A stretch of 44,878 nt of DNA. It comes from a virus (lineage: Duplodnaviria; Heunggongvirae; Uroviricota; Caudoviricetes). The DNA lies in the IMG/VR virus record IMGVR_UViG_2563366802_000013, positions 1 to 44,878 of that record. One strand, given 5' to 3'. Below are positions 1,159 through 1,825 of the stretch, piece by piece. The notes beneath the pieces are model-generated. The model saw nothing but the letters and a program-made list of their open reading frames with translations, was not told the DNA's origin and did no database searches. Both the position numbers and the translations under genes were made by a program. Position 1 is the stretch's first letter, and the number at the start of each line of letters is the position of its first letter.

Positions 1159-1548
1159 TCACATCACCGGGCAGTCGTCGAACTCACCTGAACGCGCATC
1201 GTTGATGATGTAGGTAATCACCCCAAATATTGGTGATGACACGTTGTAATCACCAGTCTGTCCAGGTATATCTTCACGCTTGCCGTTCTCCAAATTGACC
1301 AGATGAGGTTTTGGGTGAATACGGTAGCGCTTTATCCTTAACTCATCATCTATCTTGCAAACCAGCAGAGAACCATCACACGGCGTTAGCGAGCTATCCA
1401 CGACCAACAAAGCACCGTTCTGGATACCTTCTCGCCAGTATGTCTGCCCTGCTCTCATGAAGTATGTAGCTGCTGGGTGCTCAATAAATTTTTCATCAAG
1501 CGATATGCTTCGCTCTACGTAATCAGCGGACGGTGACGGAAATCCCAT
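1159..1548 (-). CDS. UmuD'-like S24 peptidase-fold protein, lacking the N-terminal cleavable arm
   Basis: 129 aa; begins MGFPSPSADYVE, matching the post-cleavage N-terminus of UmuD' (GFPSPAADYVEQ as I recall it). Ser of the GDSM catalytic block is replaced (RAGQTY); the Lys block is retained (RIKRY). Starts 1 nt after the stop of the upstream 79-aa ORF. Confidence 0.75.
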   Translation of the reverse strand: MGFPSPSADYVERSISLDEKFIEHPAATYFMRAGQTYWREGIQNGALLVVDSSLTPCDGSLLVCKIDDELRIKRYRIHPKPHLVNLENGKREDIPGQTGDYNVSSPIFGVITYIINDARSGEFDDCPVM

Positions 1549-1549
1549 G

Positions 1550-1789
1550 TCATATCCCTCCGTTCGGGTTAAAGAGCATGAATAAGCGATCCTCGCCTTC
1601 TGTCGTGGAAATGTCCTTGAACGTGCTGACGCTGGCCTCTATCCATGCATTTGCATCACGTAGTGAGAAATCCCAGTTCACCTTTTTCAGTTCCCGCACA
1701 AAATCAACGGTTCGTAGTGTCCTGCGACCGCTGGGCTCAACAACAACAGCAGACCGGAATGCGGCCTCAATGTCATAACGACGCGGCAT
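1550..1789 (-). CDS. Hypothetical 79-aa protein, first gene of the LexA-box-controlled operon
   Basis: ATG at 1789 with SD-like GGTGAGGTG upstream; LexA box 17-36 nt upstream; immediately followed by the UmuD'-like gene. No family recognised by eye. Confidence 0.6.
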   Translation of the reverse strand: MPRRYDIEAAFRSAVVVEPSGRRTLRTVDFVRELKKVNWDFSLRDANAWIEASVSTFKDISTTEGEDRLFMLFNPNGGI

Positions 1790-1805
1790 AATTCACCTCA
1801 CCAAA

Positions 1806-1825
1806 TACTGTTCATGCATACAGTA
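1806..1825 (-). promoter_or_regulatory. LexA (SOS) box TACTGTTCATGCATACAGTA
   Basis: Both half-sites match the CTGT-N8-ACAG consensus (TACTGT/ACAGTA); lies just upstream of the 79-aa/UmuD'-like operon start, overlapping a TATACT -10-like hexamer on the minus strand. Confidence 0.6.

Follow-up and report, generated by a model that had tools for sequence, protein, structure and literature searches.

A HumD gene and a conserved, predicted winged-helix gene behind one LexA box at the integrase end of an Escherichia coli prophage

A LexA (SOS) box followed by two closely spaced minus-strand genes lies next to the integrase gene of an Escherichia coli prophage (IMG/VR record IMGVR_UViG_2563366802_000013, positions 1 to 44,878; this whole stretch of 44,878 nucleotides (nt) is called the window below). 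The first gene encodes a 79-amino-acid protein, here named wH79, and the second a 129-amino-acid protein of the S24 fold that resembles UmuD'. The question raised by this locus is what the two proteins are and what such a pair could do for its carrier. Judged by its sequence, the second protein is HumD, a member of a family known since 1999, and is not new. In the databases and literature searched, neither wH79 nor its strict LexA-controlled coupling to HumD-type or degenerate S24 proteins is described, and the arrangement is not rare. As for its role, we favour, with reasonable though far from full confidence, a reading in which positions 1159-1864 form a discrete LexA-repressed accessory cassette (a 'moron') at the integrase end of the prophage that supplies HumD to host UmuC, with wH79 as an accessory of HumD or of DNA polymerase V (pol V). 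The features of this region are the following.

1159..1548, minus strand: HumD, 129 amino acids, with Thr at the Ser60 position, Lys97 kept and a C-terminal EFDDCPVM extension
1550..1789, minus strand: wH79, 79 amino acids, PHROG 3893 (function unknown), predicted winged-helix fold
1806..1825, minus strand: LexA (SOS) box, TACTGTATGCATGAACAGTA as read on the minus strand, the unique TACTGT-N8-ACAGTA match
1822..1849, minus strand: sigma-70-type promoter-like site from a consensus scan, with -35 TTGATC, a 16-nt spacer and -10 TATACT

The identity of the 129-residue protein is established by comparison with family profiles and known proteins. It matches the NCBIfam HumD equivalog NF051876 with 221.5 bits against a cut-off of 120, over residues 1-129 of the 129-position profile, and P1 HumD obtains the same 221.5 bits. 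Its identity is 65% to P1 HumD, 66% to N15 gp26 and 67% to phiKO2 gp23, and identical proteins in RefSeq are named 'HumD family translesion DNA polymerase'. It also passes the Pfam Peptidase_S24 domain (34 bits versus 23.3) and falls under the cut-off of the UmuD model NF007621 (88.1 bits, cut-off 110). The best match among solved structures is UmuD' (1UMU, E 3.7e-20), in which residue 1 is aligned with residue 2 of our protein; the start, M-GFPSPSADYVE, aligns at Cys24|Gly25 of UmuD, and there is no pro-segment and no cleavage site. In the alignment with E. coli UmuD, Ser60 is replaced by Thr and Lys97 is retained. The original prediction, made from the letters of the window, had placed the start at that of UmuD' and had seen Thr in place of the catalytic Ser; both observations stand, and the Ser-Lys dyad is not intact in the correct alignment. 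Thr at position 60 is common in the HumD family (N15, phiKO2, HK140), with Ser in P1. A 12-residue C-terminal extension (EFDDCPVM) is common to the window protein and P1 HumD and is absent from UmuD.

The prediction had further described the protein as a pre-truncated UmuD' mimic expressed only during SOS. This reading is correct, but the novelty attached to it is not, since it is exactly the definition of the HumD family. McLenigan et al. (1999, cited in PMC7092418) reportedly described P1 HumD as a surrogate of UmuD' that is pre-truncated, under LexA control and not accompanied by its own umuC. According to the P1 GenBank record, humD functionally complements E. coli UmuD' and shares its LexA site with lxr, and HumD has been described as already activated UmuD (PMC7092418). 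That HumD-type genes let mobile elements switch on the host error-prone polymerase without waiting for RecA-mediated processing is thus already known, and it gives HumD a bearing on the survival of damage, on the reactivation of phages and on stress-induced mutagenesis, the evolution of resistance included.

The absence of umuC from the window is also borne out: a tblastn search of the window for a Y-family polymerase gene, using E. coli UmuC, gives nothing better than E 1.4. Of 5426 complete E. coli genomes, 5423 carry umuC, so HumD can find a partner in its host. Substitution for UmuD' with host UmuC in SOS mutagenesis is on record for P1 HumD only, and by analogy the window protein would enter the same partnership.

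Control of the pair is indicated by its upstream region. The 20-mer TACTGTTCATGCATACAGTA at 1806-1825 is the only TACTGT-N8-ACAGTA match in the 44.9-kb window, even when one mismatch is allowed, with 0.01 expected. What had been noticed as a near-consensus LexA box directly upstream is in fact a perfect match, and it overlaps the -10 element (TATACT, 1827-1822); the -35 element TTGATC is at 1849-1844, and the box lies 34 nt upstream of the wH79 ATG. The looser pattern CTGT-N8-ACAG has two matches in the window versus 0.54 expected, which is weak evidence alone. Since two such matches were seen in 9 of 100 shuffles, the second one is probably due to chance; it was rejected as a functional box (2706-2721), being inside the neighbouring acyltransferase gene and lacking the flanking TA...TA.

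Further support comes from conservation. For this purpose we use a survey of 75 fetched loci with intact wH79, many of them closely related, which contain 40 distinct pairs. CTG-N10-CAG is found 29-61 nt upstream of the wH79 start in 73 of these 75 loci. Among 13 diverged relatives, the LexA box is the best conserved upstream element and keeps its position, and in the alignment of the 13 upstream regions it forms, together with the -35 (a CTTGATC block), the only conserved blocks. LexA boxes are also present upstream in P1, N15, phiKO2 and E. coli umuDC, and for P1 and phiKO2 this placement is annotated. Knowledge of E. coli LexA, the case of P1 HumD and the conservation of the box together suggest that LexA represses the cassette, and the -35/-10 site is its putative promoter.

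The two genes are tightly coupled, as originally claimed. The wH79 gene has GAGG 6 nt ahead of its ATG, its stop codon is separated from the humD ATG by 1 nt, and the Shine-Dalgarno sequence of humD (GGAGGG) lies within the end of the wH79 gene. This arrangement is general: downstream sequence is available for 73 loci, and in 68 of them the start of an S24-like gene is found at -17 to +2 nt relative to the wH79 stop; the product of that gene nearly always begins M-G-F-P-S-P.

Homologues of wH79 occur in 47 phage records, 49 IMG/VR contigs and 1085 plasmid records, 951 of the last being conjugative. In representative Enterobacterales genomes, 28 loci were found, including those in Citrobacter, Enterobacter, Pantoea, Erwinia, Siccibacter, Buttiauxella and Ewingella. 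Among the plasmid carriers, IncX3 plasmids predominate (46,161-bp NDM-5, 54,035-bp and 43-kb types); on these, the wH79 homologue WP_001549892 ('hypothetical protein', 56% identical) precedes the 'umuD/delta-umuD' gene; delta-umuD is used in the literature as a boundary marker of the NDM region (PMC4811927). Other plasmid sites are on MOBC/MPF_T plasmids, beside an ArdC-like zincin gene, and on an N15-like phage-plasmid, beside sopAB. In the 46,161-bp NDM-5 IncX3 plasmid (locus L092, 3400-3510), the -35 and the left half of the LexA box have given way to ISKox3, and IS26 cuts the humD-type gene short; an SHV-type IncX3 plasmid (L093:3400-3510) keeps an intact box, TACTGTATATGCATACAG. The cassette of the epidemic IncX3 NDM-5 lineage is probably deregulated or dead.

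We next consider wH79 itself, for which no match was found in Pfam (E<=1), NCBIfam, PADLOC or PDB sequences; the only family that it matches is PHROG 3893, of unknown function. Its predicted fold is a winged helix, for which Foldseek returned nothing significant in the PDB and only its own family in BFVD. A word-based homologue search reached no further than close relatives, which bear the names 'DNA polymerase V' or 'hypothetical', and an exhaustive profile search of 1.84 billion representative proteins gave 207 matches, nearly all of them stand-alone proteins of about 79 amino acids. The few longer matches, considered as natural wH79-S24 fusions, were rejected as frameshift artefacts. Profile searches of the two proteins thus lead to NF051876 for HumD and to PHROG 3893 only for wH79. 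Searches of databases and literature, including by accession and PHROG identifier, found no paper or family annotation for wH79, in agreement with the initial remark that the pairing could not be assigned to a described system.

Several identities of wH79 were tried and rejected. The original prediction had named DinI/ImpC membership as the result that would make the locus a conventional one. No PF06183 match was obtained for wH79, although the DinI proteins of HK140 and phiKO2, used as controls, match at E 1e-22 and 4e-18; the hhalign probability against phiKO2 DinI is 0.09%, and the predicted winged helix differs from the alpha/beta fold of DinI. The hhalign probabilities against the LexA N-terminal domain, UmuDAb and DdrR are 0.2%, 1% (falling in the C-terminal domain) and 0.2%, and wH79 shares only the general winged-helix fold class with the N-terminal DNA-binding domain of LexA and UmuDAb. 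A known anti-phage defence system was ruled out because PADLOC-DB defence models gave no match at E<=1 for wH79 or HumD. Note that homologues of wH79 (for example, WP_254825177, QGF21990 and UniRef K7P7E2) are widely named 'DNA polymerase V' in public databases. The protein is without similarity to UmuC or UmuD (blastp E at least 0.18), and the name is probably a misnomer that has been propagated from gene context.

As a family, wH79 has invariant residues R3, I7, A10, T27, F30, L34, A46-N47-x-W49, F57, D59 and N74 (numbering of the full 79 amino acids) and a conserved F-N-P-N-G-G tail. The isoelectric point is mostly 5-7, that is, near-neutral or acidic, and helix 3 and the wing carry acidic residues; the conserved residues appear unlike a basic DNA-reading surface. 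Against close relatives, the ratio of nonsynonymous to synonymous substitution rates (dN/dS) is 0.04-0.12 for wH79, which indicates strong purifying selection, and 0.05-0.10 for humD. Chance open reading frames (ORFs) were rejected for both genes, since these values are far below 1.

The partner of wH79 is of two kinds. About 31 loci have a HumD-type partner of 125-130 amino acids, and about 37 have a shorter S24-like partner of 102-112 amino acids, in which the Ser60 loop is deleted and Lys97 is lost. The short partners score 31-43 bits against the HumD model and can drop below Pfam S24 detection. Since wH79 proteins that are 90-96% identical to that of the window pair with either kind, wH79 may act independently of pol V-type features. 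These near-identical wH79 genes are joined to HumD-type partners in the window, L012, L022-L024 and L065, and to short S24 partners in L014-L021, L025 and L064.

Comparison of these loci at the DNA level defines the limits of the cassette. Between the window and the short-type loci, homology extends from the LexA box (about 1826) to 1520, ending 29 nt into the S24 gene, just past the invariant MGFPSPAADY codons; with the HumD-type loci it extends to the humD stop at 1159. Homology of the cassette to other elements begins at 1826-1864. These breaks indicate that the cassette is a discrete mosaic unit of about 700 bp, the second gene of which is exchangeable at the conserved junction; the joint for recombination seems to be formed by the invariant MGFPSPAxDY codons. 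A further feature lies just upstream of the cassette promoter.

1892..1935, minus strand: decayed remnant of a wH79-end/S24-start junction (GATTTCCATCACCCTCTGCTGATT), from a blastn match to the L064 junction and a three-way alignment

In the alignment, this copy reads ATGGCGTGTGATTTCCATCACCCTCTGCTGATTGTCTGA versus ...ATGGGATTTCCGTCACCGTCCGCTGATTAC. An earlier cassette, displaced by recombination at the conserved junction, seems to have left this copy behind as a scar. A short, weak GC hairpin and a T-run come after it, at about 1862-1880, and were not flagged by the terminator scan.

Some loci connect wH79 directly with polymerase genes. In a viral contig (L047, 3998-5886), a LexA box is followed by a wH79 - HumD - UmuC operon with overlapping or abutting genes, in which the HumD-family protein is pre-truncated (127 amino acids, MFQSPAEDY..., 139.7 bits) and UmuC has 421 amino acids and 73% identity to E. 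coli UmuC. In a noisy long-read contig (L011, 4888-6408), the wH79 gene is immediately followed by a umuC homologue, and no S24 gene intervenes. In Candidatus Pantoea formicae (L081:3998-7507), a full-length, cleavable umuD and a umuC with their own LexA box are found about 1.2 kb past wH79, and a short S24-like ORF follows umuC; this locus may represent the insertion of umuDC into a wH79/short-S24 cassette. HK140 carries dinI, wH79 and humD together.

With these data, the favoured reading can be stated as a sequence of steps. In an undamaged lysogen, host LexA would occupy the box that overlaps the -10 element and silence the cassette. Destruction of LexA by RecA* would let both genes be expressed from one message with translational coupling. 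HumD would amount to UmuD' made already 'cleaved', so that slow RecA-mediated processing would be skipped; it would dimerise and load onto host UmuC, giving a pol V-type translesion polymerase early in SOS. Replication of damaged host DNA and of induced phage DNA would be helped, at the cost of mutagenesis. Having no need to cleave itself, HumD would tolerate the Thr-for-Ser change. As a product made alongside HumD, wH79 would be a HumD/pol V accessory (adaptor, stabiliser or regulator) and would not have an independent function; gene context points to this as its most likely role.

Several observations weigh against this reading. The functional evidence concerns P1 HumD, which is only 65% identical to the window protein. 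P1, N15 and phiKO2 carry humD without wH79, and HumD thus does not need it; taken together with HK140, these phages indicate that HumD can do without wH79 and that wH79 does not stand in for DinI. Near-identical wH79 proteins (90-96%) pair with S24-like proteins of 105-108 amino acids that lack both the Ser loop and Lys97. An AlphaFold2 model of wH79 and HumD fused by a linker (a monomer model of the dimeric HumD, from a 27-row paired alignment) has both domains folded, a predicted template modelling score (pTM) of 0.41, a disordered HumD N-arm and no predicted interface. Finally, the epidemic IncX3 NDM-5 lineage has both ends of the cassette disrupted and can therefore dispense with it.

The alternative that survives best, although we consider it unlikely, is that the pair acts as a damper of the SOS response by sequestering host UmuC, UmuD or RecA* filaments, with no active polymerase being built. 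Host mutagenesis or recombination would then be limited, or SOS modulated, to the benefit of the phage or plasmid. It would fit the fact that no umuC accompanies the cassette on phages and on the 951 conjugative plasmids, that on MOBC plasmids it adjoins the ArdC-like zincin gene, and that umu-like genes flank plasmid anti-defence islands, where their role has been called unclear (PMC11541004); moreover, many partners are degenerate short S24 proteins, which are unlikely to be normal UmuD'. However, the complementation of UmuD' recorded for P1 HumD is an activating effect and not a blocking one, the window HumD scores as high as P1 HumD on the family model, and in L047 the same two genes stand ahead of a full umuC.

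An even less probable alternative is a regulator of the LexA or UmuDAb type split into two polypeptides, with wH79 as the DNA-binding half and the S24-like protein as a 'pre-cleaved' dimerisation half, which would control other phage or plasmid genes in SOS. The order and sizes do mirror LexA and UmuDAb, which have a winged-helix N-terminal domain of about 80 amino acids followed by a C-terminal domain that begins at the cleavage-site Gly (UmuDAb is cleaved at Ala83-Gly84; PMC4807011). The predicted winged helix of wH79 and the persistence of the pairing with S24 proteins stripped of pol V-type features point the same way. What argues against it is that wH79 has no sequence relation to the N-terminal domains of LexA and UmuDAb or to DdrR, and that its isoelectric point, mostly 5-7, and the acidic helix 3 and wing are indirect signs against sequence-specific DNA binding; in addition, the fusion model has no confident interface, and the natural long 'fusions' are frameshift artefacts.

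That the pair is a functionless leftover of a wH79-humD-umuC operon minus its polymerase gene, as the three-gene version in L047, the decayed junction just upstream in the window and the frequent disruption of IncX3 copies could suggest, is very improbable, because both ORFs are intact with dN/dS of 0.04-0.12, a level of purifying selection that contradicts a remnant, the two-gene form and its LexA box are kept in dozens of diverged Enterobacterales elements, and P1 HumD works without its own umuC.

The supply of HumD to host UmuC, with wH79 as accessory, is thus the reading that we retain. A broader proposal is more tentative, and we regard it only as possible: wH79 might be a dedicated partner of pre-processed UmuD'-like proteins, either as a new pol V-type regulatory or adaptor subunit or as that half of an SOS effector of two polypeptides which faces nucleic acid or RecA, with the short S24 partners forming a second, non-polymerase branch. 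What is new, in any case, is that a conserved, SOS-controlled and translationally coupled protein, predicted to be a winged helix, precedes HumD in most lambdoid prophages and in more than 1000 sequenced plasmids, and that a second, degenerate class of UmuD'-like proteins is found as a partner of wH79 too. The plasmids concerned include those with the IncX3 backbone, by which NDM carbapenemases are spread. If wH79 is a cofactor or regulator of pol V, it would be a new component of a well-studied pathway, and a gene that is now annotated as 'hypothetical' or, misleadingly, 'DNA polymerase V' would obtain a function. If the dedicated-partner proposal is true, wH79 would define a new accessory family on temperate phages, phage-plasmids and the IncX3 backbone.

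The remaining features concern the context of the cassette. The window is a complete E. coli prophage; the first 951-base stretch tested is found with 99.9-100% identity in 4 complete E. coli genomes, beside tRNA-Arg and yfdC. The genes considered here are listed below.

1..1158, plus strand: tyrosine integrase (Pfam Phage_integrase and Arm-DNA-bind_3; RefSeq context yfdC - tRNA-Arg - int)
2019..3107, plus strand: acyltransferase (Pfam Acyl_transf_3), divergent from the cassette
3143..5725, minus strand: tailspike with a GDSL esterase domain (domain search; in RefSeq, GDSL-type esterase/lipase)
32639-34075, minus strand: ORF for a DnaB-type helicase
35190-35732, minus strand: ORF for a YdaT-domain protein
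36100-36804, plus strand: ORF for a CI-type repressor
40931-42468, plus strand: ORFs for a RecT/YqaJ pair

The integrase marks the prophage end that adjoins tRNA-Arg and belongs to the context, outside the cassette. The stop codons of int (plus strand) and humD (minus strand) abut convergently at 1158/1159, with no spacer and no terminator, so that SOS-driven transcripts of the cassette would continue into int on the antisense strand. L007, L012, L013, L041 and L044 show this convergent order as well, the gaps there being 0-10 nt. On the other side, about 230 nt of non-coding DNA separate the wH79 gene from the acyltransferase gene. Pantoea phage AH07 likewise has an acyltransferase adjacent to its cassette, and in L019, L023, L050 and L074 the cassette has acyltransferase-like ORFs upstream. 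The pairing of an acyltransferase with a GDSL tailspike is typical of a surface-polysaccharide (serotype-converting) module.

By domain search, the prophage encodes a CI-type repressor (HTH_3 and Peptidase_S24), a YdaT-domain protein, a DnaB-type helicase and a RecT/YqaJ recombination pair. With a CI-type repressor of its own, it can be induced without need of the HumD cassette. The suggestion that the pair regulates prophage induction found no support, given this helix-turn-helix plus S24 repressor and the presence of the cassette on conjugative plasmids as well.

Comparison with known systems places the cassette as follows. P1 HumD resembles the window HumD in its 129 amino acids, its C-terminal EFDDCPV(M/I), the LexA box just upstream and the absence of its own umuC, and it starts with M-GFPSPAADYVE at the same UmuD' Gly25 position. 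However, P1 HumD keeps Ser60 where the window protein has Thr, and in P1, N15 and phiKO2 humD directly follows the LexA box with no 79-amino-acid gene between them. The divergent neighbour of humD is lxr in P1 and dinI in phiKO2. E. coli umuDC shares with the window the S24 fold, an upstream LexA box and Lys97, whereas the window HumD lacks the 24-residue pro-segment and the Cys24-Gly25 site of UmuD, has Thr for Ser60 and is not followed by umuC.

In impCAB of the IncI1 plasmid TP110, as in the cassette, a first gene of about 80 codons precedes a UmuD-like gene under SOS control; ImpC belongs to the DinI family. ImpA is full-length and cleavable, whereas the window HumD is pre-truncated and the window is without a polymerase gene. 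The small-D'-C order of L047 is the complete three-gene layout of the impCAB type, and impCAB has been noted to have a third accessory gene (PMC7092418). The UmuDAb/DdrR system of Acinetobacter is likewise an SOS locus, which combines a UmuD-type S24 domain with a winged-helix-like N-terminal module of about 80 amino acids and a co-factor gene of about 78 codons; UmuDAb is, however, a single self-cleaving polypeptide and a repressor, and the likeness is architectural only. Although the 'umuD/delta-umuD' locus of IncX3 plasmids lies on a plasmid backbone instead of a prophage, has its humD cut by IS26 and, in the NDM-5 lineage, lacks half the LexA box, its two genes form the same cassette, with a wH79 homologue and an S24/HumD-type gene behind a LexA box.

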